64,000 nucleotides of DNA from Azolla caroliniana (GCA_043228905.1 JBHGNT010000010.1:12958001-13022000); one strand, 5' to 3'. Positions 4,912-63,700 are shown, counted from the first letter of the stretch. Translations and numbers: made by a program. The notes: generated by a model from the letters alone, not told the origin.

Positions 4912-4984
4912 TCCATTGTAGTCTAGTTGGTTTGGATCCTTGATTTTTACCCGAGACGCCCGAGTACATCTACAGGCATTGGAA
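4912..4984 (+). pseudogene. second, decayed tRNA-Glu paralogue present in the satellite monomers (example copy)
   Basis: TCCATTGTAGTCTAGTTGGTTTGGATCCTTGATTTTTACCCGAGACGCCCGAGTACATCTACAGGCATTGGAA is 73 nt and colinear with the intact copy. The B box TTC is changed to TAC and the anticodon loop CTCTCAC to TTTTTAC. Confidence 0.8.
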
Positions 4985-16876: not shown

Positions 16877-16930
16877 TAGCATAATGGTAAAGTTGAGGTT
16901 TGGCTACATGGAGGTACAAGGTTCAAATCT
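16877..16930 (+). promoter_or_regulatory. tRNA-like Pol III A/B-box cassette in LTR of element B (second copy 19754-19807)
   Basis: A box TAGCATAATGG and B box GGTTCAAATCT at tRNA-like spacing. Antisense to the element. Confidence 0.6.
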
Positions 16931-17031
16931 TGCCCTATGCATGTGATAAATATCTTGATATTCTTATTTTATTTATTGGTGATAAATATCTTGATATCCT
17001 TATTTTATTTATTTATATGTAATTAAATCGG

Positions 17032-19113
17032 CTATATTATTTTTACTTTTTCACGTAGTGTACGAAATACACTATGACACTCGCCCCCTTCGAACCCGCA
17101 CATCCTCCGGTATGTGCCGAAGTTGCCGATGCTCGTTGTCTCCCCTTCATCCTCCGTTTGTCCCGCTATGTCAACTTTGTCTCTCCATTTTGAGTAGACC
17201 CATTCTTTCCACCCGAACCATTGTCGCCATCCGATCCACCATATTCTTTGTTCTCTCTCGTCATATTCTTGGCCCTTGTCATTCGTGGTAGTGTCTTTTA
17301 CTGGCCTCTTTCTTGTCTTCATCAACCTTGACTTTTTTCCGGATCGCTCTCGTCCGATCAACTTTCGGTTTGATCGGCTTCCGATCGGATTCGTATTCGG
17401 CCGAATCGGAATCGGTTGTTCGGTTTTGATTGAGTCGGTCTCCTTCCGGCCCGGTTTCGATCTATCGGTTTTGGTTTCGGTTGGCTTTCTTTTCCTCGTT
17501 TTCACCAGCCTCGACCGGTCCAACCTTCGGTTGAGTCGGATTAGCTTCTTTCCGGATCGGTCTCGTCCGATCGGCTTTCGGCTAGGTCGGCTTCCATCCA
17601 TATTCGCGTTCGGCCAAGTCAGACTCGGTCGATCGGTTTTGACCGATTCGACCCCTTTTCGGGTCGGCTTTCTTTCGGGTCGTCTTTCGGCCGAATCCTC
17701 ATTCGCCCGGTTCGGCTTTCGTTTGTGTCGTCTTTCGGCCGAATTCTCTTCCTTTCGGTTCGGCTTTCTTTCGGGTCGACTTTCGGTCGAATCCTCTTTT
17801 ACCCGATTAGGCTTTCTTTCGGATCGGAATCCCGTCCGGATCACCTTCCATCCTAACTGGCTTCCGACTTTACCTTTCTTGCTGCCACCTCCCGTCTCTC
17901 CGGTCTCACGTTGGTTCTCGGACACAACTGCCGAAGTCTCTAGAATTAGTGGGTAGGAATCCTTGGTATTATCATCCTCTGTCATTTCAACCATAGCCTC
18001 CTTCTCGGCTATCTCTCCGTCGTATGAATCGGCTTCGACCTTTGTTTTCTCTCCACCACCTTCCGTCTCTTCGGTCTCACGTTGCCTTTCGAACGCAACC
18101 GCCGGAGTCTCTGGAATCAGTGGTGGGGAAGTCTCGATATGGCCATCCGTCGTTGATTCGTCCATAGCCACCTTTGATTCGATGTCATCTTTCGTGGCGA
18201 CCTCCTCAATCAAGTCCTCTTTGCTCTCTTTCACTGCATCAATTATGCTTACCCCTTTTTCACCCGATGTTTCAATCACTTGTATTCTGAAATCTTCTTC
18301 TACACTTGGGTTATCGGCCTTATCCTTCACCGTCGTTCTTTCGCAAGACAAGAGGGTAGCTTGTTTTACACCCTCTTCCGTCACACCATCATGTTGTATT
18401 TCGGCCTTCATATCGGCTCCATCGTTTGTCTTCAATCGACCATCCTTCATCGGCCATGTCGTTGACAAGATTCTCATCTTCCTCTCATCATGTCTCCGGC
18501 ATACCCTTTGGACTTCGGCCCAATCTTCAGTAAGACCATTCGTACCGTCATCGTCTTCGAGTTCAATCCCGATGTCCTTCCTTTCTTTTCGATCGATCGA
18601 TTTTACGAACATTAGGACTTTATCCTCCCCCACCAACCGTTGTTCCCGCTCCGAGAGTCGAGCAAGACGATGCTCGAACTCTAGGAATGCTTGTGTTGCA
18701 CTTCGGTGGGTCTTCTCCGATGCCACCCATTCGTCGAATTTTCGCCGATCTTGTCCCTTTGATCTCTTGTAATCATATGCCTCTCGTAAAGCTTCTTCGA
18801 ATGACCCCCATGTCGAGTTTTGTTGTCGTATCTTGTGGATTCTCTCTTGTAGCTCATCCGTGGCCACCCGATTGAAGGATGTCACTTGCAATCCTTCCGG
18901 TATCCCACATCGTATCATCTCCGCCTTGTAGTCACGTAGATAGCGTGACACATCGTTTCCGTTGAATTGTCCGTTTCGTTGTACGAGCCGCTTTACTACC
19001 GCCGTGATCTCCGACATCGCTCGTTGTTCTTGTAGCATCCGTTCGAACATCATCATCATCGTTATGCTCATTGCCTCTTGTTGATTCTCCATCTCCTTGC
19101 CACCCGCCTTCAC
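17032..19113 (-). CDS. Gag-derived protein with acidic and Arg/Lys-rich low-complexity extension (693 aa; first ATG at ~19092)
   Basis: The N-terminus (GQFNGNDVSRYL..., KVLMFVKSID..., GLTEDWAEVQRVC) aligns by eye with the Gag of elements D, E and F. The ORF is uninterrupted and spans the whole internal region. Confidence 0.85.
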   Translation of the reverse strand: MKAGGKEMENQQEAMSITMMMMFERMLQEQRAMSEITAVVKRLVQRNGQFNGNDVSRYLRDYKAEMIRCGIPEGLQVTSFNRVATDELQERIHKIRQQNSTWGSFEEALREAYDYKRSKGQDRRKFDEWVASEKTHRSATQAFLEFEHRLARLSEREQRLVGEDKVLMFVKSIDRKERKDIGIELEDDDGTNGLTEDWAEVQRVCRRHDERKMRILSTTWPMKDGRLKTNDGADMKAEIQHDGVTEEGVKQATLLSCERTTVKDKADNPSVEEDFRIQVIETSGEKGVSIIDAVKESKEDLIEEVATKDDIESKVAMDESTTDGHIETSPPLIPETPAVAFERQRETEETEGGGEKTKVEADSYDGEIAEKEAMVEMTEDDNTKDSYPLILETSAVVSENQRETGETGGGSKKGKVGSQLGWKVIRTGFRSERKPNRVKEDSTESRPERKPNRKEENSAERRHKRKPNRANEDSAERRPERKPTRKGVESVKTDRPSLTWPNANMDGSRPSRKPIGRDRSGKKLIRLNRRLDRSRLVKTRKRKPTETKTDRSKPGRKETDSIKTEQPIPIRPNTNPIGSRSNRKLIGRERSGKKSRLMKTRKRPVKDTTTNDKGQEYDEREQRIWWIGWRQWFGWKEWVYSKWRDKVDIAGQTEDEGETTSIGNFGTYRRMCGFEGGECHSVFRTLREKVKII

Positions 19114-21098
19114 GTCGGGTTCACCAACTGTGTCGTGCCTTTCGGCTCCGGATCGTTGCGTGAGTCGGGTGGGAACCGCCGAGGTTTTGGACTAGGAGAA
19201 AGAAGAATATGAGATGAGGCTAGTAATGAATAGATTATTAGAAAGAGAGATAGAAATTTCGTGAATCCCACGAGTGTATTGTATTCGATTAATCAATATT
19301 TAGATAAGAATATGTATTTAGATTGAAAGAAAGATATAATAAACTTGTGAATCCCACAAGTATAGATTATATTATTTTCGTGAATCCCACGATTATATTA
19401 ATCGGTTGGTGTTTTCAGAAATATATCCAATTTCCAAATATTTCACACGCCTATTACATTGTGCTCCCCATCCTTATGTAGTGATGGGAGAGACTAAGCA
19501 TAGCTACATGCTTTTTTTTCTAATATGTTCATGCACACTAAATGTGCATGTGATGCTTTTCTAATCCTTGCTTTTATTTGCTAAATATAGTGCTCATGCA
19601 CGCTAGATGTGCATGAGTCACTTTTTAGTTGCTTGCGTTTTTCTATAAAATATTCACGCACTCTAAAAATGCATGATTTACCTTTTAATAAAGGTAGGCG
19701 CAAATAAAGCACTTATAGTTATTAAATCTATTTATAAAACACTAAAGATAAGGTAGCATAATGGTAAAGTTGAGGTTTGGCTACATGGAGGTACAAGGTT
19801 CAAATCTTGCCCTATGCATGTGATAAATATCTTGATATTCTTATTTTATTTATTGGTGATAAATATCTTGATATCCTTATTTTATTTATTTATATGTAAT
19901 TAAATCGGTTATATTATTTTTACTTTTTCACGTAGTGTACGAAATACACTATGACAACGTCATGTGTAAAGTGTTTGATATCTCAAAAATTGAAGAGCTA
20001 AATTACGTGTTACAATAATGTCTAGTTAACATATAGTCAATACGATGTTTGTAGGATTGATGAGAAATTTTACTTTTATTTTATTCTGCTAACATAAAGT
20101 TCAAAACTTAATCCCATTATTCAATTAATGGTATAGGTTTCAAATGAAATTTGACAAAACATTATGTAGTTCGGGACAAGAAGAAACACTATATTTAGTC
20201 GCGGTTATTCCTAACACATTGATGTTAAAAACTGCACAAGATTTGATGCATTGTAATCTAGTTGGTTAGGATATTCACCTCTCACTCGAGAGACCCGGGT
20301 TCAACTCCCGGCAATGGAAAAGACAATATCAAATATCAAATTTCCGACCCATGTCATGTGTAAAGTGCTTGATAACTCAAAAACACAAGCCCTAAAGTAG
20401 TTGTTACAATAATGTACAATTAAGAAAATAATCAATATTATGTTTGTAGGATTGATGATGAAATTTACTTTGAGTTTATTGTCCGAACATCAATTTTTAA
20501 CCTTAATAACATTATTCGATTAATGGTAGAGCTGTCACATGAAATTTGACAAAACATTACGTAGTTCGGGACAAATAGAAGGAAGTGGAATTATATTTAG
20601 TCGTGGTTATTATTAAACATTGTTACGACAAATTAGTACACCGCTCATCGAAAATGTATCAAGTTATCGAAACTATAATTGGATAATCCCGACAATGGAA
20701 GAGACAATATCAAATATCAAATTTCCAACACATGTCATGTGTAAAGTGTTTGATAACATTATGTAGTTTGGGACAAGAAGAAGGAGTATATTTAGTCGTG
20801 GTTATTGCTGAAGATTGTTACGAAAAATTAGTACACCAACAATTATAGTTTGGATAACTTGGTACATTTTCAAAAATATACATATAGATTGTAGAGTAAT
20901 GGTCATATGTCAATGAGCATCGCAACATGTTTCTTCTTTGGAGAAAAGGAGTAGAATATTACATTAACTAATTTATTTTCTCAATGAATTCCATTGTAGT
21001 CTACTTGGTTCGGATCCTTGGTTTTCACCCAAAATGGTATTGTACAACTGCGGGCATTGGAAACACTAGAGACATCATAGATCATGAAGAAATGTGTC

Positions 21099-24821: not shown

Positions 24822-27776
24822 GCCTAGGGTCTGATGACATTCAAGTGCATATAGAAGGGTGCAAGCAAGATTTGAACCTTGCACTTCTAAGATAGGAAAC
24901 AATTATCTTACCACTAAAGCTCCTACTAAGTGCTTTAGATTTTGTATATTTCCTTCTCATATTTAGTATTCCATAGGAAACAAACATACAAAACCATGGT
25001 TTTATAGCCTATGGTTTTGTGCATGCCACAAGGAAAACCGTGTGCCTGAAAACCATGGGTTCAAGCCCATGGTTTTGTGCATGTTAGAAGGATAGATAAA
25101 CCTATAAAAACCCTCGTATGGCTTGTGTAATGGGGGGGGATGAATCAAACAATTTATGAATCAATCTATGTATCAAATCAAAAATTAATAAGAAGAAAAC
25201 TTAGTTATCTTATTGGTGCTATGCATTTATCTATCTATCTATCTTAAAAACTTCCTCAATTTATTATTATTTTTTCTCTCTCTCTCACTCTAACGACATT
25301 AGTGCATCACTTTAGCCACCCATCATCAATCCTCCATAACCACTAGCGGATAGAGGCTCGATGCTTGTCCGCGCTTGTGATGCGCACATCCCGACGTTTG
25401 GCACGTGTGTCACGCGCCACACGACATCTATTTGGTGAACCCGACGTGAACAACACAAGGTGGTTATGGGGGCATTACGAATGGATGGTGCGATCTTGGT
25501 AGCGTATGACTTAGAGTCGATAAAAATACAAGGTGGTCTGAGGCTCGAGATGCTTCCATTGGTAAGGAAGGCCATCGAAATGATGTTGCATGATGAGATG
25601 GGTAGAGCGTTCGAGTATCTCAAGTTGGCAAATCAAGTTCAAAGACTATATCAAGAAGTTCAGGATTTGTACAAAGCAGTTCTGACATCAAGTTTCGGGC
25701 CTCAACCTTTTCATGGTTTGCGTGACGGTGACAACGATGAAGATGATCAAGATCGGCGTAGTTGCGGTCGTGAAGAGACATGTGATGAAGAACATGGGCT
25801 CAAGAGGGAAGATCTAGAAGGATGCAATCATAAAGAGACAAAGCAATGAAGAACATCAATTTGAGGGGAATGACCAAGATACTCAAGGATGCGGTCATGA
25901 AGAGACTTTCAGCAAAGAAAGTGGGCTCGTAAGGAAAGATGAAGATACTCAAGGATGCAATGGTGGTGAAGAAACATCTGACAAAGAACGTGGGCTTGAG
26001 GAGACCGATCAAGATCTACACTTGAGGAGACCGATCAAGATCTACACGGTCATGACAAAAACAAAGATCATTACAAACTCACAAAGAGTGCTCGAAATCT
26101 ACAAGGTTATGATCATGACAAAGATTACTGTGAACACAAGAGGAGGAATCAATGTCGAGCTCTTCATGGTTGTGCTAATGAAAAAGCACTCAACGGAAGT
26201 CGTGACGGTGAGAGTAGTTGGGATCAAGACTTTTATGGTTTAAAATCTTATGACAAGTATGATAGGTTTAATGAGAACCACGAACAAGAGAAGAAGTTAG
26301 GAAGGGATAAAAACGTTACATTTAAACGTAATGATGATGATGATTTAGGGCTTGATGATAGTAAGGGAGAGTGTATTATTGATGGTAAGAGTGAGAGCCA
26401 TAAGAAGAATGTGGGTTATGATGGTAAAATGTTATGCACTTTTTGTGGATATGGTTATGATAAGGGTAATGATGAGGGTGAGAGTGACGAAGAGGAATTG
26501 TGTGTTTTAGGTTGCCTTGGTTTTCTTTGGGATAGATTTTATAAGAGTTTCACTAGATCAAATGGTGACATTCATGAGGACATCCATTATAAAAATAGAA
26601 TAGGGATTTGTGATGATGAGGACATTCTACAAAAATATGTCCATGATGACGTGGGGTTACATGATGATTACAAGGGTATAAGTATGGAAAATCTAGAAAA
26701 TGTTATTTGGGATGAGTATCATGATGATGTTGATGTTGTGAGTATGTGTGGGAAGGACAGGATTAAAGTTGATAGTATGTGTGTCTAATGATAATGTTGA
26801 TGTTGTGAGCATGAGGAAAAGCAATCATAAGATGAGAAAAGACGATCTGAGGAATTTTGATGACCAAGCACATGGTCGAGATGAAGGTGGCACATGTACA
26901 ATGCATGAAGAGTTACGCTAAGGAGGAGCAAAAGGGGCTACGACAAGTGGTCATGGAAATGCGAAAGGAGATCGAATGATATGGTTGATCGGTTGGAAGG
27001 AATGCATGTACTCAAAATGGAGGACAAAGGATGACACGTAAGGAAGGAGGAAATCAAAGACAAACCAGCTTTTGACTCCGCCACATCACTCTTCTCTTCT
27101 TGGCACATGCCGGAGGATGTGCGGTTTGGTGGGGATGGATGTCGTGATGTTTTGTGTCCAATGGGAGAAATTGTGTGGTTCCACACACATTATACATATA
27201 ATTATAAATATGAAAATTAGCCTAGGGTCTGATGACATTTAAGTGCATATAGAAGGGTACAAGCAAGATTTGAACCTTGCACTTCTAAGATAGGAAACAG
27301 TTATCTTACCACTAAAGCTACTACTAAGTGCTTTAGATTTTGTGTATTTCCTTCTCATATTTAGTATTCCATAGGAAACAAACATACAAAACCATGGTTT
27401 TAGCCTATGGTTTTGTGCATGTTAGAAGGATAGATAAACCTATAAAAACCCTCGTAAGGCTTCTGTAATAGGGGGGGATCAATCAATGGATGAATCAAAC
27501 AATTTATGAATCAATCTATGTATTAAATCGAAAATTAATAATAAGAAAACTTAGTTATCTTATTGGTGCTATGCATTTATCTATCTATCTATCTTAAACA
27601 TTTCCTCAATTTATTATTATTATTTCTCTCTCTCTCACTCTAACGACATTAGTGCATCACTTTAGCCACCCATCATCAATCCTCCATAACCACTAGCGGA
27701 TAGAGGCTCGGTGCTTGTCCGCGCTTGTGACGCGTACATCCTGACGTTTGGCACGTGTGTCACGCGCCACGCGACA
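24822..27776 (+). mobile_element. Element C: non-autonomous Trp-primed LTR element (no pol), 5' LTR truncated
   Basis: LTR copies at 24822-25426 (missing ~80 bp) and 27140-27776. PBS TGGTGAACCCGACGTGAA at 25433-25450 and PPT before 27140. The ~1.7 kb interior holds decayed acidic ORFs and internal repeats. Right flank is ACGT, inside copia RNase H. Confidence 0.85.
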
Positions 27777-35300: not shown

Positions 35301-35384
35301 AAATGAAATTTGACAAAACATTATGTAGCTCGGGATAAGAAGAAGTATTATATTTTTTCGTGGTTATTCCTCAATATTGTTACG
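32351..35384 (+). repeat. tRNA-Glu-derived satellite, block 5 (~795 bp monomers, recently homogenised)
   Basis: GAATTCCATTGTAG at 32369, 33163, 33958 and 34753. tRNA-like copies at e.g. 32626-32698 and 35012-35084. Confidence 0.95.
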
Positions 35385-35782: not shown

Positions 35783-35861
35783 ACCATCTTCGCCCGATTC
35801 GCCATCAAAAGGGTATACGCCGGTCCGAACTCTGTAAACGACATTAACGAGTTAACTCCAT

Positions 35862-36238: not shown

Positions 36239-36827
36239 ATTTCGAGTGGTCAAACACTCATAGGAAACTCACTTAGCGAGGGAAGAAATCAAAAGGAAAC
36301 TACTATTTCACATTTTAATTAAGTTAATTTTCTATTTTTTAGTTTTGATTTACTACATCAGAAACGAACATCTTAGTGTCAACTTATGTGGGTATAAAGT
36401 TTTGCAAAAGAAAGAAAAGAAAAATGTGAAATATCCCACATAGATAGGAAAGTTAAGGCCCTGGCTATATAAGCACATAGAGATCCCTTATTTCTCATTT
36501 TGTGCTAAGAGCACTTTGGCCACTTTGTCAAGATGGATGAATGTGGCCAAATTCCCAAAACCGACTAGCAATAAAATGGAACCGGTCGGTAATGAAACCG
36601 GAATCGGCCAGAAATAAATTCAGAATCGGCCGATAAATTGGAAATCAAACCGGAACCGGCTGGAAAGCAAACCGGGACCGGTCGGTAAGCAATCCGGAAC
36701 CGGCCGGTCGGCGGCGGATCCAGCGACAGAGCCGACGAACCCGCGTCATCCGACGACCGAATAGATATATAAATAAATATATAGATGTATACATATATAT
36801 ATATATATACACAAGGAGTGCAAGTGT

Positions 36828-36881
36828 GGATTTGAACCTTGCACCTCCAAGTTGAGAGTCTATAGGCTTACCACTAAGCCA
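36828..36881 (-). promoter_or_regulatory. tRNA-like Pol III cassette in LTR of D (copies 58573-58626 and ~61843-61896)
   Basis: Minus strand reads TGGCTTAGTGGTAAGCC...GAGGTGCAAGGTTCAAATCC: consensus A and B boxes, and a paired D-arm-like stem GGCTT/AAGCC. Confidence 0.65.
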
Positions 36882-39489: not shown

Positions 39490-40092
39490 TGTTAGGATCT
39501 CGGTCCCTCCGAATGGGATAGGAAGGCCCGACATCGGAAGACCCGGTGAGAACCGGATGACGAGTACCCGACAAGGAAGACCCAGTGAGAACCGGATGTT
39601 GCAGGCCCGGTGAGAACCTCTCACCAGATGAAGGGACATATATGTAGATATATTTCTGAGAGCCCATTGGGGCTATATCTGTAAATAGTCCTAATGTCAT
39701 ATTAGTATAAATGTGACCTAAGGCAAACAGTGTGCATCAGGATTATAGTTGCTGTTGTTATCTTTGTATAGTGTTATTGGTGTAATCACTGTACTGAGAG
39801 AGAGAGAGAGAGAGAGCGATATAGAGCATGCCTCTGTTGTAACCGCCAACAGGAGAAGATTGTGAGCAAAAGGTTGCCTCTGTGCTCCCTGTTGTACTCT
39901 TTGACATAGTGATAGTTTGGAGTCTGTGGACTCCCGTGGTTTTTTCCCTCTCAGGGTTTTCCACGTTAACATCCTGTGTATTCTCTTTTTGTTTGTGTAC
40001 TTACCTCCATTCCCATTTCTTCTGTGTTTGATTTTCATCAAGTGATCTACGCTTTGGTTGTGGCCGGAGATTATTCCACGTATTTCTCGTCA
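39490..40092 (+). mobile_element. solo LTR (copia-like) inserted in the protease of D
   Basis: TG...CA termini and 5-bp TSD GCGTT/GCCTT (1 mismatch). The host frame GAA|FARIKS rejoins across it. Has a TATA box and a GGGTTTTCCACGT U5-type motif. Confidence 0.8.
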
Positions 40093-40415
40093 GCCTTCGC
40101 ACGAATAAAGAGTCTTGACAACCAAAGATGGGTCCAATTCCTACCGGTGTCAGCCAATCATGAAAGGAATCGAGATAGTCTTGGAGGCGAATCCTCGGAT
40201 TTTTAGAGTGGACTATTGAAGCATGGGGCACAGATAGTCCGAGCAATCACAACTCCCCACAAGAAAGTAGAGTGCGTGGATTGCGAGGAGAAGCAACATG
40301 TGTCACACCTAGTGGCGCATGTAAACTAGTACAAACCGACAAGAAGGACAAGCATCGAATACAAAACTTCGAGAAGATGTTGAAAGAATAAAACATAATA
40401 GAAGAAGAAGAGTTT

Positions 40416-48300: not shown

Positions 48301-48715
48301 TCGCGCTGTTTCGAGGAACGCCCGAGAGCTTCCTGCAGCACCTCCGACCTGCTCCCTTTTGTGCTTCGCAGCGAACAGGCACCGGCATCTGTTCGCCGGC
48401 CTGTTCGATTGTAACCGTCCCGTGCCCCATCGCGGGTTGTAGCCTCTTGATTAGATATTTGCTTATATATATATATATTTACATATTCATTTGATCGCGT
48501 CTACCTGTGTCGACGTCTATTTGTGTTCTCTGTGTTGAAGGGCCGTGTCCCTGTGTATCCCCGGTCCTGCGTAACCGGTCCTCTTCTCTTTCTCCACCCT
48601 CGCTTGCTCTTCGGTTCAAGACCCCCGCGGTCCCGTCTCGTTTCTATACGCACTTGCGAAATAATCCCGACATCTTGGTGAACCCGACGTGAAAGAGGCG
48701 GCAGAAGAGCAGGAA

Positions 48716-50842
48716 ATGAGGGGATCGGAACTTTCAGAGGCCATGGCTTCGGCCGTGGACCGGATAGTAAACGCACGCGAGGGCTCCGGCGCCCTCGACA
48801 GAGCCATTGAGGCGGTCGTCGGTACAATCGGCCGATTCAGCGGAAAGGATGCCACGAAGTACTTGGCGTCCTACGGTGCAGAGATGCTGATGCGGGACAT
48901 TCCGGAAGAAAGGCGTCTTGCCGAATTTCCCCGAGTGGCGATGCCGAGCATCCATGTGGAGGTGCTCGAGGTGCGAGTGGAGAGCCGTACCTGGGAGGAG
49001 TTCGAAGGTCGGCTCCTAGAGAAATACGGGCTGGACGACACGCTCCGGCTTTCGAAACGAAGCTTCATGGAATGGGTGGAGTCCCCCGGGAAGGGAAGAA
49101 ACGCGTCGGCACTCCTTTGGGAGTTTGAGGAAAACTTTGCGCGCCTTTCGACGCTTGACCAAACGATCCTGGATACAAGCCGGGTCCTACTGTTCGTCAA
49201 GTCGGTGGACGAGCGGGATCGGGATCACGTGGGCGCCCTGTTGGAAACTGAAGACGGGCTGACGACCGACTGGGCGGCGGTTAAGAGAGCCTGCGGCCGT
49301 TTCGACAAACGGCGAGAATGGGCGGATAACGGGGCGACCGGGTCGGGCTCGGTCGCAGCAAGGAAGCTTGAACCGGCGCAGCCGGTGCGAAAGGGAGAGA
49401 CCCGGGAGTGGCTGGAAACCGGTTCAGCTTCGACCGGCGTGATCAGAGGCTCGACCGGAGGAGCTGCGTTGGAGGAATTGACGAGGGCGATAAAGGACCT
49501 CCAAATTGCACAAGCCCGCAGGGACGGCGGCGAGCCGGCTCGCGACCGACGGCCGACAGCGGGAAACAGATGCATGTGGTGCGACGAGGTCGGCCACATT
49601 CGGAAGGACTGCGGCGATTTCGCAGATGCGCTGAAGAACCGGGTGGTGTACCTGTGGGAAGGCCGGGTGCACGCCAGCAACACCAGAAGGGCCCTAAACC
49701 GAAACGACGGGCGAGGAGGGATGAAGAGACTGATGGAAGAGGCGGCGGCCCGACATGCGGAAACCGTCCACTACTCGGCGTCAGCCGGCATTCGGGTCGG
49801 GGGCAGCGAGGCCCGAAAGGAAAGCCAAGCCGGATTCTGGCCGACGGTGCTGGAAGTCCTTGCCGGTGCGCGGCTGAAAAAGGAGGAATCGGACCGTGCG
49901 GAGAAACGGGTCCGGGAGATAACCGGGTGGAGCGACCCGGTCGAGGAGAGGACGGGCTTCGTGGAAGCCGCCTGCCAGAACTACGAGGCTCTGGTAGAAG
50001 AGAAGCGGGTGGGGAAAACCGGAATGACCGAGCCCTCACAACGATACGAGACCCAGTTCGGGCCACGACGGAGCGAAGCCGTCGGGTCCGGAACGCAAGA
50101 TAACCCCAAGAAGGGCGGGTAGATTCTGGGGACGGAGATAGAAAGAATTACGGACTTACGAAAGGTCCTGGAGGAACTGATCCTCGACAGCAAGGTGGAG
50201 CTGTCGTTACGAGAGGTGCTGGGAATCGCCAAGAAGGAGTTCCACGACTCCATCGTGGACTTGGTGAAACGGAAGAGGCTGTCAACGGAGACAAAACCGG
50301 AAAGACCGGTAGAAGTGCGGACGACGCACCTGGACGACATGGCGCTGGAAGACGAGTGGGCGGAGAGCCACTATTCGAGGCCACACTGGGCCCGAGCGAC
50401 CACGGAAACCCCGGTGAAGATCGGCAATGTCCAGGAACCGGCGGTAGCTTTGGTGGACCACGGATCGGAGATCAATCTAATGTCCATGGACTTCTACAAG
50501 AAGGGCAAATGGCCGATCAACACCAAGCACGGGTGGAAAATAAGGGCGGCAACACGCGCCACCGAGGAACTGCATGGGGCCTGTCCGAACGTGCGGGTCA
50601 AGATCGGCGACGTCGAGATAGACCAGCACTTCTTCGTGCAGGAGACGTCTTCGCATCCGGTCATATTGGGAGAGCCGTACATCACGGCGGCGCGAATGGA
50701 GACCAAGGTGCTGGACAACGGTTCGGCCTACGCGAGGGTCAAAAGCCAGGACGGGCGCCATTCGGTCCAGTTTTTGACGGTTCGGCCGAACCACGAGCGT
50801 AACCGCGACTCCCTCGGTGGTGAGAACCGAGAGGATTTTTAG
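48716..50842 (+). CDS. ORF1 of F: Gag (CCHC knuckle) + aspartic protease; in-frame TAG at 50120-50122
   Basis: CMWCDEVGHIRKDC knuckle, ALVDHGSEINLM protease motif and VILGEPY. ORFs 48689-50122 and 50195-50842 are in the same frame. E and D have Tyr at the stop position. Confidence 0.88.
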
Positions 50843-50898
50843 AGAGGGCTACCAAGGCGTGGGGCCGCGACAGTCCGGACACTCCGGGAAAACCCCAC
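50833..50898 (+). promoter_or_regulatory. -1 ribosomal frameshift signal (G_GAU_UUU + pseudoknot); homologues at 40197-40260 (+) and 47616-47681 (-)
   Basis: Heptamer sits just before the ORF1 stop, followed by a 6-nt spacer, stem 1 GGGCT/AGTCC and stem 2 GTGGGG/CCCCAC. Confidence 0.75.
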
Positions 50899-53800
50899 AC
50901 CTGTATGATAGAACCGAAGGAACCGTGTACCATAGGTAGGAAATTTTGCTTCTCCGACAGCGGACCGTGTACGATAGTCGGCATCACCGGCCGGGAGAAG
51001 ACGAAGGCGGGGGGGAGACTTCGAGCGTGCGGAGTTCTCGGCCCTGACGAGGAAATCAACGGAGCCGTGGAGGCGGTCTCCTTCGACGACACCCTGGGAA
51101 TGCTGGGGAAGGTAGTCGAAGAGGACCCTAACGAAGACCGGACGATACCGGTATGTTCCGAGGAGATGTACGAAGTCATCGCGGACTTTGGTCGGGGGCT
51201 CGAGTCGGATCGGACGGGCCGAGTGAGCACCAAGTACAAGACTGTGGACCGGAAGGTGAGGCCAGTTGCGGCACCCTTACCGGAGGGCAGCGAATCCCGA
51301 ATCAAAGGGGTTGCATCGGACCCCAGCTTACGAGAACTGGCCTGCATAGGACATACCTTCACCAACGAGACGCTCCGGGAGCTGAAGATAGGTGGGGGCG
51401 GGTTCCTACTGCCGGCGGAGGAAGACCGGTTTCGGAGGATGCTCGGAAGGCACGGGAAAGCCTTCGCATTCTCACCGGAAGAAATCGGGTGCGTAGACCG
51501 GACGATCGTGGAGCCGATGGTGATCTTCACGGTACCGCATGTACCGTGGAACCTCAAGCCGATTCCGGTTCCGAGAGCTCACATCCCGAAGTTGATGGAG
51601 CTGTTGAAGCAGAAGGTTGATATGGGCGTACTCGAGCCGTCGAGCGCCCCATATTCAAACCAATGGTTTACCGTACCAAAGAAAAACGGATCGTTGCGCT
51701 TCATTCAGGACCTGCAGCCGGTCAATAGAGTGACTATTCGGAACGCAGGGATCGGACCGACCATAGACGAGTTCGCGGAGGACTTCGCCGGAAGGTCGAT
51801 TTACTCGGTCGGTGATCTATACTCAGGGTACGACCAGTTCCAACTAGCCGTGGAGAGCAGAGACATTACGACGATGCGAACTCCCCTCGGCCTAGTGCGG
51901 ATGTGTACGCTGCCGCAAGGAGGGACCAACTCGGTGGCCCACATGGTGAATGCCATGAACAAGGTTCTGAGGGACTGCATCCCGGACATCACCATGTCGT
52001 TTCTGGATGACATCCCGATCAAGGGATGCCCGGTGGAAGAGAAGGATGAAACGCTCGGGCCGGACGGATGCCGGCGATTCGTGGCGACGCACGTCGACGA
52101 CTGCGAGAAGGTGCTGCAAAGGCTAGAGGATGCAAGGCTCACCTTCTCGGGGGAGAAATCAGCCTTCGGGCAGTCAGAAATCATGGTGGTCGGACACTTA
52201 TGTGGACCCTTTGGCCGGAAACCGTCTCCGGCAAAGGTAGAAGCCATCTCTGCGATGAAGCCCGACTGCAGCTCGGTCACGGAAGTACGAAGATTCTTGG
52301 GAGCATGCGCGTTCTACCACATATGGATCCCACATTACGCACACGTCGCGGAGCCGCTATACGGGTTGCTGAAGAAGGGGCGAAGGTTCGAATGGCTAGA
52401 CGAGCACACGGAGTCGGTCCGGAAGCTGAAGGAGGCTCTTTCGGCAGCACCGGCGCTCCGGAAGGCCGTCTACAAGAAGGGCACCTCAGTGTACATAACG
52501 GTTGACACGAGTCCGACCGGAATCGGGTGGGTCGTCAACCAACAAGGCGAGGACGGCAATCGGTTTCCGATCCGATTCGGCGCGAAAGTCCTCAGCGAGC
52601 GGTAGCGAGGATACGCCCAGGTTAAACGCGAACTCTGGGGTATCGTTTCGGCGGTAAAGGCCGACAAAGATTATCTGATCGGGACAGAAGTGATTATCGA
52701 GACGGATTGCCTGCCAATTCTCGGCATGGTTTCCGGATGCGCGACGCCGGACCTGGCGATGCTCAGGTGGATAGCGTACATCAAGTCCCTGGACCCGGAA
52801 ATACGACACATTTCCGGGAAAGACAACGCCATGGCCGACATGCTTTCGAGGGCGAGGTTCGATGACGAGGGCGGCATGGTTTCGGAGGACGAAGAGGTCG
52901 GCGTGGACTTCTTCGAGGCGGCATACGTAACGACCGACGGGACGAGCACTCCGGCGCTTAACGACTTCGACGCAAGCAAGTACGACGGGGATTGGCTGAA
53001 GATCGGCGGGTTCTTGAGGACAATGGCGCCGGATGCGTCATGGACGAAAGATGAGGCCAACCGGATCCGGAAGAAAGCGTACCGGTTCTTTCTCCGGGAT
53101 GGATATTTGTGGAAGCACCCGAAGAAGAGGAACGGCGTCCCGCTCCGGGTGGTGGCGATGAAGGAAGAACAGGAGGAGCTGCTGGCGGCTTACCACGACA
53201 GCCCTTGGGCTGGACACCGTGGGACGTGGGCCACGTTCGAGAAACTAAAGGGGAAGTACTGGTGGCCGGGATTGTACCGGGACGTGCATCGGTTCGTGAC
53301 GACTTGCGAAAACTGTCAGATGCACTCCGTAGTCCGACACCGGGACGAGCTTCACCCTACGTACCCTCCGACCATCCACTTCAAATGGATGGTAGATCTG
53401 GTGACGATGCCAATGGGGGTAGGACAGATGCGGTATCTGGTCCTAGCACGGGAGGATCTGACGAACCAGGTGGAAGGCCGAGCCCTTCAGAATAAAACGA
53501 CCGCGGCCGTATGTCGGTTCCTAATCGAGGACGTGATATGCCGGTACGGGTGCATCGGGAAGATCGTGGCTGACCGAGGGGAGTTGGATGCCGAAGAAGC
53601 CGCGGAGCTGTTCGACCGGCTGGGAGTCAAGCTCTCGCTCACCTCTGCGTACAATCCGGAGGCAAATGGGAAGGTGGAGCGCGGACACGGGCCGATCGTC
53701 AAGGCGCTGGTTCAGGCATGCGGAGGCCAAGTCGGTAACTGGCCGCGGCTACTACCTTATGCTTTGTGGGCAGACCGGACCACGCACAGTTCGGTAACCG

Positions 53801-54330
53801 GGTACATGCCGACGGAGCTCATGTTCGGCCAGAAGCCGATCATGCCGATGGAACGGACGATATCCTCATGGGCAACGGTCGACTGGAGGGACGAGATGAG
53901 CCGGGAGGAGTTGTTGGCCGCGCGTATACGACAACTCGAGCGGAGACCGGAGGACGTGGAGCTGGCTGCGGAGAAGCTCCGGATGGCGAGGACGAAGAAC
54001 AAAGCCAGGTTCAACCGAACGCACCGGCTCCGACCGAAGAAGGTCGAGGAAGGTGACTGGGTGCTCGTCTACGACAGCAGCCTCGACAACCAGCACCGGG
54101 CTACACGGAAGTTCGTGCGGAGATGGTTTGGGCCGTACGCGGTACAAAGCGCCAACGACAACGGGACGTATCACCTGGCGGAACTTGACGGCACGAGAAT
54201 GGCGATACCCGTGGCTGGAAAGAGGATCAAAGCCTTCAAGAAGCGGCACGACGACGAGCCAGACCCGGTTCTCCTAGACAGCAGCGACGACCGATCCGAG
54301 ACCGAGGAAGAACCGATGGGCGAAGAGTGA
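50833..54330 (+). CDS. ORF2 of F: RT-RNase H-integrase (GPY/F, no chromodomain), -1 frame relative to ORF1; in-frame TAG at 52603-52605
   Basis: Motifs FLDDIP, VDTSPTGIG, ETDCLP, ADMLSR, HHCC, DLV...ADRGE...VERGH and WFGPY. The frame is open from the slippery site at 50833. Confidence 0.9.
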
Positions 54331-54808
54331 AGGCGGGCCGGTTTTCTCCGTCCCAACTTAATTTGGCGCATGCGGGTGGATGCGCGGTTAGGTGGGGGCG
54401 GATGTCGTGAAGAAAACCGTCCAAAGGTGGAATTGGGGCACCAAGGCGTGGAACCGGCTCTTCACGCACATGCGCTGCAAAGCGCCAACGACAACGGGAC
54501 GTATCACCTGGCGGAACTTGACGGCACGAGAATGGCGATACCCATGGCTGGAAAGAGGATCAAAGCCTTCAAGAAGCGGCACGACGACGAGCCAGACCCG
54601 GTTCTCCTAGACAGCAGCGACGACCGATCCGAGACCGAGGAAGAACCGATGGGCGAAGAGTGAAGGCGGGCCGGTTTTCTACGTCCCAACTTAATTTGGC
54701 GCATGCGGGTGGATGCGCGGTTAGGTGGGGGCGGATGTCGTGAAGAAAACCGTCCAAAGGTGGAATTGGGGCACCAAGGCGTGGAACCGGCTCTTCACGC
54801 ACGTGCGC
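54145..54808 (+). repeat. 333-bp tandem duplication of integrase end + PPT + first ~73 bp of LTR in F
   Basis: CAAAGCGCCAACGAC at 54145 and 54478. LTR start TGTCGTGAAG at 54403 and 54736. Confidence 0.95.
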
Positions 54809-57326
54809 GCCAAGTTGTACATAAAGGCGAATTAGGTACCTAGGGGGAGCGTCGAAGCGGTTAGATACGGTAGGTAGAAATTTAATGCGGAACGGCTCCT
54901 TCTGGACCTATAAAAGGAGGAGGACGAGGAAGAAGAAAGGATCGCGCGCAGAGAGGACGAAGTGCTGTCGGGCTGATTCTGGACGCTTCTCTCTCTGTTC
55001 TCCCTCCCCTTTGGTTCCATAGCTTTTCCTCTGCAGGGTTTCGAGGAGGCTCGCGCTGTTTCGAGGAACGCCCGAGAGCTTCCGGCAGCACCTCCGACCT
55101 GCTCCCTTTTGTGCTTCGCAGCGAACAGGCACCGGCATCTGTTCGCCGGCCTGTTCGATTGTAACCGTCCCGTGCCCCATCGCGGGTTGTAGCCTCTTGA
55201 TTAGATATTTTCTTATATATATATATATTTACATATTCATTTGATCGCGTCTACCTGTGTCGGCGTCTATTTGCGTTCTCTGTGTTGAAGGGCCGTGTCC
55301 CTGTGTATCCCCGGTCCTGCGTAACCGGTCCTCTTCTCTTTCTCCACCCTCGCTTGCTCTTCGGTTCAAGACCCCCGCGGTCCCGTCTCGTTTCTATACG
55401 CACTTGCGAAATAATCCCGACACCGTGCTTGGTGTTGATCGGCCATTTTCCCTTCTTATAGAAGTCCATGGACATCAAATTGATTTCTGAACGGTGGTCC
55501 ACCAATGCCACCACTGGTTCATGAACATCTCTGATCTTCACGGGGGTCTCCGTAGTCGCTCTGGCCCAATGCGGCCTCGAATAGTGGCTCTCCGCCAACT
55601 CGTCTTCCAGCGCCATGTCCTCTATGTGTGTCGTCCCGCACCTCCACCGGGTTCTCCGGTTCTGTGTCCGTCGACAACCTCTTCCTCTTCACCAAGTCTA
55701 CGATGGAGTCATGGAACTCCTTCTTGGCAATCCCAAGCACTTCCCTCAGCGACAATTCCATCTTCCAGGACCTTTCGCAGGTCCGTGGATCTTTCGATTT
55801 CTGCGCCCAACCGGTACCCGCCCTTCTTGGGATTATCCTGGGCGCCGAGTACACCGGCCTCATTCCGCCTTTGCCCGAATTGAGTTTCATATCGCTGCGA
55901 GGGCCCGGCCCCTCCGGTTTTCCCTACCCGCTTGTCCTCTACCAGAGCCTCTTAGTTTTGACAAGCGGCTTCGACGAAGCCCGTCTTTTCTTCCACCGGG
56001 TCACTCCACCCGGTTACCTCCCGGACCCATTTTTCCGCGCGGTCCACCTCTTCTTTCCTCAGCCGCGCGCCGTCGAGGCCTTCCAGCATCGTCGGCCAGA
56101 ACCCGGCATTGTTTGTCTTCGGGGCCTCGCCACCTCCGACCCGAATACCAGCTGACGCCGAGTAGTGACCGGTCTCCGCGTGACGAGCCGCCGCCTCCTC
56201 CATCAGCCTTTTCATGTCCCCTCGCCCGACGATCAGGTTCAGGGCCCTTCAGGTCTCGCTGGCGTGCACCCGACCGTTCCACAGGTACACCACATTGCTT
56301 CTCATCGCCTCGGCAAAGTCCCCGCAGTCCTTTCGGATGCGCCCAACCGCGTCACACCACATGCACTTGTTTTCCGCCGGAGGTCGTCGGTCACGGGCCT
56401 GTTCGCCACCATCCCTCCGTGCCTGGGCGATCTGGAGATCCTTTACCATCCGCGTCAGCTCCTCCAGAGATGCTCCCCCAGACGATCCCTTGACCATGCC
56501 GGTTGAGGCCGACCCGGTCTCGAGCCAATCTCGGGTCTCTTCTCTTCGCGTTGGTGGTGTTGGCTCGAGCTTCTTTGCTGCGATAGAGCCCGCCCTTGTC
56601 CATCCTTTGTCAACCCATTCCCGCCGTTTGTCGAAACGGCCACAAACCCTTTTCACCACGACCCAGTCGGCTGTCAGCCCGTCATCAGTCTCCAATAGGA
56701 GGCCTACCTGCTCCCGATCCCGCTTGTCAACCGACTTAACAAACAATAGGAGACGACTTGTGTCCAGAACGGTCCGGTCAAGCACCGAGAGGCGCGCGAA
56801 GCGCTCCTCAAACTCCCGAGGGAGCACTGACGCGTTCCTTCCTTTGTCGGGGGTCTCCACCCACTCCATGAAGTCTCGCTTCGAAAGTCGAAGCGCATCT
56901 TCGAGCCCGTATCTTTCGAGGAGCCGACCTTCGAACTCCTCCCAGGTCCGGCTCTCGGCCCGTACCTCGAGCACCTCCGTATGGATACCTGGCATCGCCA
57001 CTCGAGGGAACCCGGCTAGACGCCTCTCTTCTGGAATGTTCCTCATTACCATCTCAGCCCGGTAGGACGCCAAGTAGCTCGTGGCATCCTTTCCACTAAA
57101 CCGGTCGATCGTACCGACAACCGCCTCGATAGCCCTATCAAGGGCGCCAGTGCCTTCGCGCGCACTCACTATACGGTCTACAGCCGAAGCCATGGCTTCT
57201 GCAAGGTCCGACCCCCTCATCTTCTACTCCTCTACCGCTTGTTCACCAAATATGTCGCGTTGTTACGCACGTGCGTGGAGAACAAGGCGGGACCACTGGG
57301 GTCTTGGACCGAGGAATAGGTGAGAA

Positions 57327-57380
<54 letters not shown>

Positions 57381-59219
57381 GACGCTCACACACGTATAGA
57401 TAGAGAAGTGCACGGGGACGCGGCCCAACAACACAGGAGACACGAGTTGAGAACACTAGCGTATGTATATAAATATGTGCAGATGACTCGAACGGTTACA
57501 GCCGACCAGGTCGGCGAGGTGGATGTCGACGCCTGATCACCCACGCACACAGGAGAGCAAGATGGAGATCCTGCCGGAGGCACACGGGTGTTCCACGGAG
57601 CAAGATCAGCCTCCTGAGAACCTGCGTCAAAGAAACCTATGGAGACCGATAGAGAAGAAGAGCTCCCCCAGTCCGACAACACTTCGTTCCTTTTAGCGCG
57701 CACCCCCTTTCTCTCGCCCCGTCTCCCTCTCCTTTATAGCTCAAGGAGGGAAGCCGTTTCACCCGTTTACATCACATTAATTCTCTGTCCTTTCAGACAG
57801 AGATACTCCTCGATTTCCCTTATAGAATATTGCTACCTAGGATCTAACCTTTGTGCCTACCTATCTACCATACGACAAGGGACGTGCCCACGTGTAAGGG
57901 CTGGTTCACACACATTATACACGGTTTGCACCTGGGGACGGTTTCTCCACAACAACGTGCGGTTTGGTGGGGTTGGATGTCGTGACGATTTTCGGCAATG
58001 GTGTGAAAATCACATAAAACTATAAAAGGATGGAGGTCTTGAAGAGCTTTCAGATGCACTTTACTACATAAGAAACAGACATCTAAGTGTCAACTTATGT
58101 CGGTATGAAGTTTTGCAAAAGAAAAAAAAAGAAAAATGTGAAATATCCCACATAGATAGGAAGGTTAAGGCCCTGGCTATATAAGCACATTGAGATCCCT
58201 TATTTCTCATTTTGCGCTAAGAGCACTTTGGCCACTTTGTCTAGATGGATGAATGTGGCTAAATTCCCAAAAACCGACTGGCAATAAAATGGAATCGGTC
58301 AGTAATGAAACGGGAATCGGCTGGAAATCAATTCGGAATCGGCTGATAAAATGGAAATCAAACCGGAACTGGCCGGTAAACAAACCAGAAACGGGACTAG
58401 TCGGTAAACAATCTTGAACCGGCCAGTAAGCAAACCAGAACCGGCTGAAAAGCAAACTAGAACCGGTCGGTCGACGGCGGATCCGGCGAACCGGCGTCAT
58501 CCGGCGACCGGATAGATATATATAAATAAATAAATGTATACATATATATATATACACAAGGTGTGCAAGTGTGGATTGGAACCTTGCACCTCCAAGTTGA
58601 GAGTCTATAGGCTTACCACTAAGCCAAAAAAATTTCATGAAATAATATTTTTGTCTTTATAGTTTTACATGTAAATTCTCATACATGAGACCTTAAATGA
58701 GTGACATGGTTATCATGCACCACATGTAATACATGAGCGCCAAATGGCAAACATACATTTTATGCATGTCTTGTACCCTCAAATGCATGAGGGCATCTAT
58801 AAAAGAGGGGAGGAAAAAGATGAAAGACTAATGTAAATTTTTGGGAAGCTTTGTACTTGATATCAGAACTAAAATTAAAAGTAAGAAATTCGTTATCCAA
58901 TTGATGATATATCTAGTCTCTCAAAATCTCTCTCTCAATCTAAAATAAAGTGTTCTATCTTATCTTAATCTCTCTCTTTCAATCTATCTTAAATCCTTTC
59001 TCGCTAAAGCTAGCACCAACTTTGAGTCCTTCCGGTCTAGAACCTCGATGGTTCTGCCTCACGATCCGTGCGTAGTGACAGATCTTCACGACAACGCTAA
59101 GTATTGTTGAGATTTAGTCGTTGCAAGGCAAAAGTGAGCACCGCGATTCTCGCTGATTACGATCATCCTACGGACCACGAAACAACTGTTGCCACACAAA
59201 AAAAACAAATTTCCCTCTC

Positions 59220-60552: not shown

Positions 60553-60707
60553 AAGAGTACATGGCCGGATCCTCATGGACGGAGATGTTCTAAACCCGAC
60601 CCACAGACCAGGAGGACTCCACACAAACCAAACAAACACACAATGCTGACCAATCTAACCCAGCTCGATACCACGAAGGCTGGTTAACCCCGGGGACGTT
60701 ACCAAAC

Positions 60708-63700
60708 ATGAACCTCCCATCGAGCCTGACAATTAAAGCACCTCTCAACACACCTCCACTACAGGGGAGCCCAATGGCTGACCCACTCGTCGTAGAGCGA
60801 CACATACGGGATGCCACGCAAGAGTTACATATGATAGAACAAGAAATCAATATATGTACAACGCAACTCGCGAAAGGGAGACAACCGAAAATCATCACCC
60901 GAGATATTGAAGCCACTTTGGCAGAAAGGAAAGACAGGTTTGCGCGATTGCAACAAAAAATTCACCTCCTAGAAGCATCGCTACATACACTGCACCGCAT
61001 TCGAACACAACGGGCGACAACCCAAACGAAGCACACACACAACGACACCCGACGCCACGACATATGGACATGACCCCTACACCCGACCGAACTACCTCAG
61101 CACCGCCGAACACCGAACTGACACTAGCATTACAATCCATCCAAACCCTCGTGGCATTGATGGAAAAAGAGCGAGCGTCCACAGACAATGCGAGAAACCC
61201 CAGAAACGGCAACGGTGTCATGAAGATTCTCGGTGATAGTGTGAAACTTGTGAGCAACATACGAAATCAACTGTGGTTCTTCTCACAAAATATAAAACAA
61301 TAATAGTGAAGAGACTATTTTAAATAAGTTTAATATCTTGGTACAAAAAGATGGAGGTCTTAAAGAGCTTTTGAATGCACTTTGCTACATAACAAACGGT
61401 CAACTAAGTGTGAAGTTATGTGGGTATGAAGTTGCGAAAAAAGAAAAGAAAAGAAAAGAAAAACAAACCTGTGAGATGTCCCACATAGATAGGACAAACA
61501 AGGATCCTACAATATATAAAGCAAAGCCAAGAGCTATTATTTTTTGTCTATGTGTGGAGCATAGAGAGTTCAAGGTGACTTGAACTAAGTTAATCAAATG
61601 AATGGGTGTGGCATAGCTACTTGCAAAGGTTTTGGCCAACCAAAACCGGACCGGCAATAGCGGCGGCGGCTGGCATGCGGCGACCAGCAACGACGACCAG
61701 TGACCGGCCGGTGACGGAACCGGCTAGGGATGCGAACCAAATGGATCGGTCAATTGTGGTGCACGGTGTCTTAAAAATATTTGGTGTAATTACAAGACCA
61801 AAAGCCTAATAGTATTTTGTGCTTTAAAAAGGGATGTATACAAGCCTTGAACATTGCACCTCCAAGTTGAGAGTCTATAAGCTTACGATTAAGCCAAATC
61901 ATTTCTTTAGGAATATATTTTTTATCACGATACTTTTACATGTAATTCTCATACATAAGAGCTTAGATGATGACATGGCAAGCATGCATTTCATGCATTC
62001 CGTGCATGTCTTGCACCCTCACCTACACCATATGCATGGGGGCATCTATAAAAGAGTGGATGAATCAAGCAACTGGGGGAGCTCTGTATTAAACAAGAAA
62101 TTAAGAGGAAGAAAATTCGTTATCCCATTTTTGTGATGTATTAATCTTGTCTCTCAATCTAAAGTCAAGCATTCTATCTTATCTTAATCTCTCTCTTTCA
62201 ATCTATCTTAAATACTTTCTTGCTAAAGCTAGACCAAACTTCGAATCATTCTGGTCCAAAACCCCGACGGTTCCGCCTCAAGATCCGCACGTAGTGACGG
62301 ATCTTCACGACAACGGGAAAAGTGATTCCATTTCTAAACTAGTACCCCATTTTCTCGGTTTCGGTTATGCCTATGATCACGTAGAAAGGTTCAAGTAGAT
62401 ATGTCGAGCTTATGAGCCCGTCACAGAGACCACCAAAGTAGCGGCGTTTGGACTTACATTCGATGACCAAGCTGGAATTTGGTTTAGGACCTTGAATGAG
62501 GACATCGTCACAGACTTCGAGTATGTCATCGAAGATTTCCTAATGAACTTTGCTCGTCGAGGGAATAAATGGAACCCGATCGACCAACTTTTCGCCCTCA
62601 AGCAACAAGCGAACGAAATTGTCCGGGACCACATATGTCGCATGAAAAGCCTTCACCATCGTTGTAGCCCGAGAGACAAGATGTCAGACAACAAATTGAT
62701 GAGCCGATTCATCAATGGGTTGTTTGACCCGACACTCTAAAATTTCCTGATTGCTAGGATGTGTCAGTCATTCACAGAAGCTTGTAAGGTAGTGATGACT
62801 TTCGAAGATTCAATGAGCAGGTTATGGATACCCACTCAAGTGCCTACGAACAACTGTGAGAAGCCCTCGGATCCCACTCTAGCCATGCCGTCGAGACCAC
62901 CCTGTATAGAAAGACCCCAAGAATATGCCCAAAAAGAAAATGTAAGGTGTACGGTGTGCCATGGCCATCACACGGGGCATGAGTGCCCCCTCCTCCACCA
63001 ATGACGACCTCAATACTATAAGTGGTGCAAATCCTTCGTGATGCATTCTCAAGAGAACTGTTGGCAAGCCCCAAATGGAAGGTATAACCAAGCACCAATG
63101 GTCGAGCACCCACGATCACCTCCACCGCTTAGCCGCTCACAACTACCAGCAATACTTCCCCAACAACCCCCGCTACCACGCATGGGAGCTCGCCTCACCG
63201 AACTAGAATATGCCACTGATAACCAAACTCAGGTTGGGGGGGACACCCCCGAATATGAAGACTCATACTGGGAGTACGGAGTTGAAGAAGAGGTGCTTCG
63301 TGGACTTCGAAGGCGACCAAATACCAGTGTAGGTCTTGAGAGGAGAACAGAGTGGCCTGTCGATTGGATATCGCAACAATAATGGTCTAGGAAGGTCCGA
63401 ATTGAAATGTTTCAATTGCCAAGGCGCACACGTGGATAGCGAGTGCCCAACCAAACATGAGTACTACAACCAGATGGCACAACGACTACGACATCCCCCA
63501 CTCGAAACACCCCCACAACCACTGGTACAAAGTCTCACCCAACAGTCACGGGACCTTATCGAGTGGCTCCAAAGAGAAGCATCATGCCCAAGGTGTGGTA
63601 AAGAACACTTAGTACCTGATTGCCCAACAAAAAAGAAACGGATTGGCGCAAATCTGTTTTCTATCGTACCATCAACGGTTGGCGCCAACATCATCACAGG

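Follow-up and report, generated by a model that had tools for sequence, protein, structure and literature searches.

The modules derived from small RNA genes that the TRIMs (terminal-repeat retrotransposons in miniature) Cassandra, Helenus and Ajax carry within the LTRs (long terminal repeats) have been explained as promoters of element RNA. According to the accessible part of the Helenus paper (Kojima 2024; PMC10886601), 'not a few' LTRs in Repbase hold tRNA-like parts, only TRIMs were analysed, no moss family is included, and autonomous partners are expected not to share such LTR sequence. Genes for tRNA give TFIIIC-dependent insulation, and in yeast they serve as boundaries, as do TFIIIC sites, a role also proposed in mouse (PMC4370569, PMC8136502), whereas yeast TFIIIC sites are also described to stop or repress neighbouring transcription by RNA polymerase II (Pol II) (PMC4228148); these papers, too, are cited from their accessible parts. 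The present work deals with a stretch of 64,000 nucleotides (nt) from Azolla caroliniana (GCA_043228905.1, JBHGNT010000010.1:12958001-13022000; hereafter the window), in which several LTR retrotransposons assigned to the Ty3/gypsy clade Phygy carry a short antisense module with the A box and the B box of a tRNA gene. There is about an even chance that this module is kept as a DNA site for TFIIIC beside the Pol II promoter of the LTR and shapes the chromatin of that promoter, most likely as an upstream boundary.

The module comprises 54-55 nt corresponding to tRNA positions 8-62, with both boxes, and it lies in the unique 3' region (U3) of the LTR, antisense to the host element. A preliminary description of the window had reported seven copies, in elements B, C and D and in a solo LTR, and all seven were found again at their places and strands (Table 1), three of them with box lesions (C 5' LTR, D 3' LTR and the solo LTR). 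The distance from T8 to G52 is 43 nt in B, D and the solo LTR and 44 nt in C; the 44-45 nt given earlier between the A-box T and the B-box G is correct if counted from T8 to G53. A box pattern derived from the cassette hit six places in the window and none in 200 local shuffles. The GC-rich LTRs of elements E and F, said to be free of the module, gave no match in either the box or the profile scans. Along the LTR, the module stands 119-271 nt upstream of the TATA box and head-to-head with it (the TATA-like box of B is a weak match), which is a steadier position than its distance from the LTR end (126-626 nt). The former placement near the end of U3 suits B and C, where the module lies 126-149 nt from the LTR 5' end; it fails in D and in the solo LTR, for which this distance is about 600 nt.

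Relatives were collected by a module-independent scan of metagenome contigs for an LTR end and primer-binding site (PBS), which gave at least 122 loci; three chance matches (L028, L071 and L086) were dropped, and all counts of loci below refer to the loci listed, 42 of which have only about 300 bases per side. The host organisms of these contigs may be close relatives of the organism of the window. A generic scan for the A and B boxes returned 21 matches over 99,318 bases on the LTR side, where five rounds of dinucleotide shuffling averaged 0.8, and one match in 91,242 bases of internal sequence. As regards a free-standing tRNA-derived SINE (short interspersed nuclear element), of which copies with a body, a tail and a target duplication would be expected outside LTRs, every match of the profile described below that exceeded the null fell within an LTR (about 204 kb, loci and the window), the loci themselves having been picked by their PBS.

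On its sequence, the module is almost certainly derived from a tRNA. The spacer between G19 and G53 measures 33 nt in 13 of 13 modules, equal to that of the tRNA-Glu genes of the window, and no insertion or deletion (indel) separates the boxes in any of the 13, though the surrounding LTRs are indel-rich. Besides, a pattern derived from the module made 38 matches on viral contigs, and ARAGORN recognised tRNA genes in 38 of 38. The box spacing, these pattern matches and the conservation of the boxes support the derivation put forward in the preliminary description. The tRNA itself has been lost: RF00005, whose use on the LTRs had been proposed, matched no module at E<=10, an acceptor stem is not evident, the anticodon-equivalent is variable, and the consensus fold of 16 copies gave no structure. 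With a cloverleaf imposed by hand, on an alignment with some misplaced gaps, 62.5% of the cells were paired (T arm 75%, anticodon stem 50%). The anticodon stem of the modules pairs at 1-4 of 5 positions against 4.6 in real tRNAs, and the first run of four T lies at +59 to +305 or is absent, so that there is no fixed terminator. The absence of a consensus fold, the weak anticodon stem and the scattered or absent T run point to no conserved RNA product, and as the boxes and their spacing are kept while the fold is lost, the module likely works as DNA.

As for the source, an origin from the surrounding tRNA-Glu array was ruled out by an identity of 0.23-0.35 at positions 22-52, and no fixed isotype is assignable, since the anticodon-equivalent varies among modules. 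The modules of B, C, D, L002, L024, L053, L067 and L073 have an inter-box identity of 0.39-0.94, which indicates that they share ancestry between the boxes.

Conservation was compared at eleven box positions chosen by tRNA numbering. In six homologous subfamilies the identity is 0.92 in the boxes and 0.51 at positions 22-43, as expected from the earlier claim that the inter-box sequence has diverged while the boxes are kept, and variation affects 2 of the 11 box positions but 32 of the 43 sites elsewhere (p 0.0003 by permutation). Over all 13 modules the boxes reach 0.93, the inter-box sequence 0.48 and the flanks 0.37 and 0.36. The module is also the sole inner U3 segment aligned by sensitive blastn in five pairs (B-L002, C-L053, D-L002, D-L073 and C-L067), and in six D-type LTRs its conservation equals that of the TATA-proximal promoter block (0.72 for both), with 0.41-0.58 in the neighbouring stretches. 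A test grouped by promoter block, with L059 added, gave p 0.0004. Within the B family, contigs of four sequencing runs were placed on B (contig depth is not copy number, and depth peaks were not used); the G at 16925, which completes the canonical CpG-containing B box, takes 71-80% of the depth over the four runs. On the whole, the boxes are probably kept by selection.

Other observations concern the same sequences. The D-type TATA-proximal block (36960-37050, 58680-58800 and 61960-62045) is rich in CATG(CA) repeats and 79-94% conserved over six loci; we take these repeats to resemble RY elements. Loose contig ends in three runs reveal a further subfamily, in which the A box is intact and a 5' spacer unlike that of B is joined to a 3' half resembling B; L010 represents a decayed copy of this subfamily. 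One RNA-labelled run placed on B yielded three short contigs, none of them over the module.

The preliminary description had the module always antisense, which is true of the intact module; a second, sense-oriented and decayed copy lies downstream of the TATA box in D and the solo LTR. This second copy and the patchy distribution treated below go beyond that description. A profile made from 16 antisense copies detected 10 such copies, spread over 8 loci and scoring 41-71 bits, while reversed sequence reached no more than 8.0; most of the copies recovered were members of its training set. The profile also matched sense copies in L122, L067, L051 and L121 (11.5-17.7 bits). L055 and L059 hold one sense copy each besides two tandem antisense copies, and the distance from the TATA box to the sense copy downstream of it is 73-75 nt in L055, L059 and L067. 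Among these sense copies, five have a 34-nt spacer and a kept B box, and three have lost G10. Decayed sense remnants occupy this position in D and the solo LTR as well as in L035, L053 and L024 (z 9-21). In the D-type LTR, two diverging modules of the tRNA type thus likely once flanked the TATA box, and the outward one lasted.

The antisense module was found in 10 of 39 complete LTRs (33 loci and six LTRs of the window), and module-bearing LTRs are AT-richer, with a GC content of 0.39 against 0.48. The 3' LTR of L063 scores 8.9 bits with the profile, but its boxes and spacing are clear. Six of the seven D-type loci with enough upstream DNA retain the module. On a gag tree made from 37 of 41 gag pieces (the four under 95 residues were excluded, and the module state is known for 21) the module is patchy, with at least three changes and a clustering no greater than that of shuffled labels. 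Promoter blocks and tail blocks are combined in mosaic fashion in the LTRs; three different promoter blocks accompany the module, and the Gag proteins of its carriers are 33-48% identical. In view of this patchiness and mosaic structure, recombination between subfamilies has likely moved or removed the module. Viral contigs contained no Phygy PBS, save one chance match, and the host gene for tRNA-Trp did not turn up in viral or prokaryote collections.

Some loci show related arrangements. L063 and L121 form a small non-autonomous family: the 3' LTR of L063 has its antisense module 60-140 nt from the LTR start, and the related 278-bp LTR of L121, which may come nearer to a genuine LTR of the Helenus kind, has a sense module. 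L037, L027 and L102 carry, 250-400 nt before the LTR end, a distinct sense unit resembling A and B boxes with a 36-38-nt spacer, present twice in L037. Where C-type LTRs carry the antisense module, L022 has a T-arm-like hairpin in sense orientation, about 375-450 nt before the LTR end; it includes a B-box motif and has no Rfam match.

The coordinates of the modules and of their host elements are collected in Table 1.

Table 1. Modules and host elements in the window (LTR, long terminal repeat; PBS, primer-binding site; TSD, target-site duplication; ORF, open reading frame)
Feature	Coordinates	Strand	Remarks
Module, B 3' LTR	16877..16930	+	U3, antisense to B
Module, B 5' LTR	19754..19807	+	Antisense to B
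Module, C 5' LTR (truncated)	24868..24922	-	T8 altered
Module, C 3' LTR	27266..27320	-	
Module, D 5' LTR (truncated)	36828..36881	-	
Module, D 3' LTR	58573..58626	-	Position 57 altered
Module, solo LTR	61843..61896	-	G18 and G52 altered
Decayed sense copy, D 3' LTR	58894..58962	+	Downstream of TATA; local alignment to L051 sense copy, z 13.5
Decayed sense copy counterpart, D 5' LTR	near 37149-37217		
Decayed sense copy, solo LTR	62121..62181	+	z 14.8
Element B	16254..19956	-	3.7 kb, gag-only, Phygy; TSD ACGT
Element B, LTRs	16254-17079 and 19131-19956		824/826 identical
Element B, PBS	19109-19126		
Element B, gag-like ORF	17035-19191		719-codon frame
Element C	24822..27776	+	About 3 kb, without pol; 5' LTR truncated
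Element C, LTRs	24822-25426 and 27140-27776		TATA 27440
Element C, PBS	25433-25450		
Element D	36349..59093	+	Decayed gag-pol Phygy; 5' LTR truncated; E and F nested within
Element D, LTRs	36349-37348 and 57978-59093		TATA 37052 and 58797
Element D, PBS	37357-37374		
Element D, reverse transcriptase and integrase domains	40392-42371		
Solo LTR, D type	61216..62312	+	TSD ACGG; TATA 62046
Element E	43384..57954	-	Phygy; TSD ACGT; module absent
Element E, LTRs	43384-44084 and 57253-57954		GC-rich
Element F	47986..55422	+	Phygy; TSD CCGT; module absent
Element F, LTRs	47986-48672 and 54736-55422		GC-rich

The termini TGTCRT...CGACA are common to B, C, D, E, F and the solo LTR, and the target-site duplications (TSDs) are of the 4-bp type NCGN, the right flanks of C and D being ACGT and ACGC. 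A PBS of 17-18 nt is identical in B, C, D and F and altered in E; we assign it to tRNA-Trp, in agreement with the definition of Phygy. This definition (Neumann et al. 2019, PMC6317226, accessible part) describes a non-chromovirus Ty3/gypsy lineage with a 4-bp NCGN TSD and a PBS mostly for tRNA-Trp. By TSD and PBS, the five elements and the solo LTR are classed as one Ty3/gypsy clade, Phygy, so that the LTRs, earlier regarded as otherwise dissimilar, are those of one clade, and the LTRs of D and the solo copy are 72% alike across 529 nt. The named relatives of the D pol are from Riccia and Adiantum; taken by themselves, these and the retrotransposon clade would suggest plant DNA, likely of a moss. 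Element B is young, and so is F, to judge from its LTRs (682/687 identical).

The LTR elements are nested into an array (1-16250, 19957-21100 and 32350-35350) whose tandem units, of about 780-795 bp and in both orientations, consist of tRNA-Glu(CTC) genes and pseudogenes; per unit there are two tRNA copies 255 nt apart, one better kept and one more decayed. Within the DNA available for them, 2 of 119 metagenome loci contain a tRNA gene. Targeting of insertions to tRNA genes was rejected on this count, and for the same reason the array is likely a mere landing site offering ACGN targets. Element E sits in an ACGT a few bases before the polypurine tract (PPT) of D (43380-43383 and 57955-57958), and an NCGN target carried in the conserved 3' end of Phygy elements may favour self-nesting. 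In element F, a 344-nt duplication (54139-54814) repeats the pol end, the PPT and the LTR's initial 80 nt and resembles a template-switch error. From 27777 to 32350 runs a decayed minus-strand Ty1/copia element with a tRNA-iMet-type PBS at 31951, in whose end region C is inserted, and between D and the solo LTR lies about 1.4 kb (59150-60570) of degenerate tandem repeat of the 18/36-nt type.

The proposed mechanism can be outlined as follows. The module would have been captured from the head of a tRNA-derived SINE or from a tRNA pseudogene, ordinary reverse transcription would copy it into both LTRs, and LTR recombination would spread it among gag lineages. Purifying selection would hold the A box, the B box and their spacing while the tRNA fold was lost. 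TFIIIC would then bind the module 119-271 bases upstream of the TATA box, TFIIIB would assemble between the two, given the head-to-head layout, and the TFIIIC site would set the chromatin at the LTR Pol II promoter. The features retained are those that TFIIIC reads, and that TFIIIC is bound on young copies seems reasonably likely; that the net effect is a boundary, such as the barrier against flanking heterochromatin suggested in the preliminary description, or an activation rather than damping is put forward tentatively, at somewhat less than an even chance. A stronger version, in which coding LTR elements use an outward tRNA-gene promoter, with TFIIIC, as a portable boundary by which every new copy would shield its own Pol II promoter from silent chromatin at the landing site, and descend from a form whose TATA box stood between two diverging modules, appears rather doubtful.

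Several facts weigh against the reading as a TFIIIC site. Pol II must cross the module of the 3' LTR to finish the genomic RNA and TFIIIC represses Pol II in yeast, so the effect could be of either sign. Since the boxes themselves led to most modules in the first place, box conservation is overestimated, and the comparison of the boxes with neighbouring U3 foreseen in the preliminary description is favourable across subfamilies and marginal within promoter-block groups (0.91 against 0.78, p 0.053; 0.94 against 0.72, p 0.055). Positions 44-52 are also well kept (0.70-0.93), beyond what a model of boxes alone needs. Between the boxes, modules of the L059 and L063 types are near background against the others (0.26-0.48), and these types may be separate captures. 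The boxes of L010 are decayed and, in the B family, G10 is lost in 43% of the depth in one run, C56 is decayed in 18-38%, and an inter-box CpG is retained as well as that of the B box. Finally, 29 of the 39 complete LTRs, those of the young F included, are without the antisense module, which means that Phygy elements replicate without it, and L066 is a D-type LTR with the module deleted.

A rival reading is that of a neutral passenger, that is, one or a few SINE or tRNA pseudogene insertions in a master LTR, shuffled afterwards by LTR recombination, with box conservation as a product of ascertainment. The patchy gag tree, the many LTRs without the module, the deletion in L066, the marginal excess within promoter types and the loss of the A-box G10 in most sense copies would all suit it, and the variants of the B family, at 2 of the 11 box positions against 11 of 31 between the boxes, do not clearly separate it from selection. 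Nevertheless, a passenger would hardly be retained at the level of the promoter block in six of seven D-type loci while adjacent U3 turned over, stay free of inter-box indels within indel-rich LTRs, or keep its boxes at 0.92 when the sequence between them had fallen to 0.51 in the homologous group, and we regard this explanation as unlikely. A similar standing is given to an active promoter for RNA polymerase III (Pol III) whose short antisense RNA, or whose transcription itself, damps the element, through double-stranded RNA over U3 or Pol II repression of the tRNA-gene type. Full Pol III initiation needs both boxes and the exact spacing more than TFIIIC binding alone does, such a transcript could pair with the U3 sequence that ends the genomic RNA at its 3' side, and TFIIIC depletion in yeast de-represses genes next to TFIIIC sites (PMC4228148, accessible part). 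The product, however, would have no conserved terminator, length or fold, and no reason is evident for a selfish element to keep a damper.

It is very improbable that the module acts in the genomic RNA, as a tRNA complement that pairs with the primer tRNA and aids minus-strand transfer. Its antisense orientation in U3 fits such a role and the conserved positions are tRNA loop positions, but the primer as deduced from the PBS (positions 59-76, with 49-53 added through stem pairing), a comparison that covers the 3' half of the primer, agrees in its T arm with the modules at 1-3 positions out of 5 and 1-3 out of 7, the full 18-nt PBS is present in 116 of 119 loci, and sense copies, unable to pair, exist. 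HIV-1 reportedly has a tRNA-Lys3-like sequence in U3-R with a role in strand transfer, and Ty3 is said to have a split (bipartite) primer site; in both, tRNA-related sequence would likewise be antisense in U3 and would match the primer tRNA, unlike the module described here with respect to the primer 3' half.

The interest of the module lies in its orientation. The module points away from the element and cannot make its genomic RNA, so in coding, TATA-bearing elements its conservation needs another reason than the one given for TRIMs. Should TFIIIC be bound, these LTRs would be a natural multi-copy test of Pol III factors insulating plant Pol II promoters and would offer a retrotransposon a means of resisting silencing that needs no element-encoded protein. 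Built-in controls are provided by sister subfamilies that differ in having or lacking the module (D against L016/L033, B against L003/L061), and Phygy elements are also present in the transformable moss Physcomitrium.

In the literature, taken without Repbase entries, subscription journals and bioRxiv supplements, no such module was found described in Phygy or in coding plant LTR elements; the accessible parts of PMC7466625, PMC6911290, PMC11251516, PMC12786077 and bioRxiv 10.64898/2026.03.01.708851 hold no relevant statement, and PMC3286476 describes a different arrangement, a tRNA dimer at the PBS of a mosquito gypsy element. Modules of tRNA origin in LTRs are already known from Helenus, and what appears to be new is an antisense module retained over several coding gypsy subfamilies of plants next to an intact Pol II promoter. 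The elements studied here agree with Phygy as described in the accessible part of PMC6317226 in the NCGN TSD, the tRNA-Trp PBS, a length of about 8 kb (D) and a polyprotein filling the internal part; that part of the paper does not mention a tRNA-like LTR module, which a minority of subfamilies has here.

Cassandra, the analogy first proposed, and Ajax likewise have in their LTRs a Pol III promoter from a small RNA gene, but theirs is 5S-derived (boxes A and C), the elements are non-coding and Pol III makes the element RNA (PMC7215508, PMC10886601, accessible parts). A nearer precedent, which the preliminary description did not name, is Helenus (TRIMp3), with its tRNA-derived LTRs (PMC10886601). 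As in the present case, Helenus has tRNA-derived sequence in both LTRs and no functional tRNA, its conservation centres on box A (TRGCY...YGG) and box B (GGTTC), the sequence lacks complementarity to the PBS, and SINE insertion into the LTR has been proposed as its origin (PMC10886601, accessible part). The module described here shares the tRNA-derived LTR sequence with A and B boxes and departs from Helenus in its orientation and in the length and coding capacity of its host elements. Helenus elements are non-coding and 311-1263 bp long, whereas those that carry the present module are gag-only and gag-pol elements of 3-8 kb, with LTRs of 600-1150 bp that retain a TATA box; the Helenus module is proposed to make template RNA and is sense in the Selaginella LTR (Helenus-1_SMo), whereas the intact module is antisense in seven of seven window copies and the sense copies are decayed. 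In function, a parallel may be the boundaries formed by tRNA genes, extra TFIIIC (ETC) sites and B2 SINEs (PMC4370569, PMC8136502, PMC4228148, accessible parts), where A- and B-box DNA by a Pol II promoter acts via TFIIIC, a likeness drawn from sequence; those boundaries are host loci or free SINEs, whereas here the module is built into the LTR and copied with the element.

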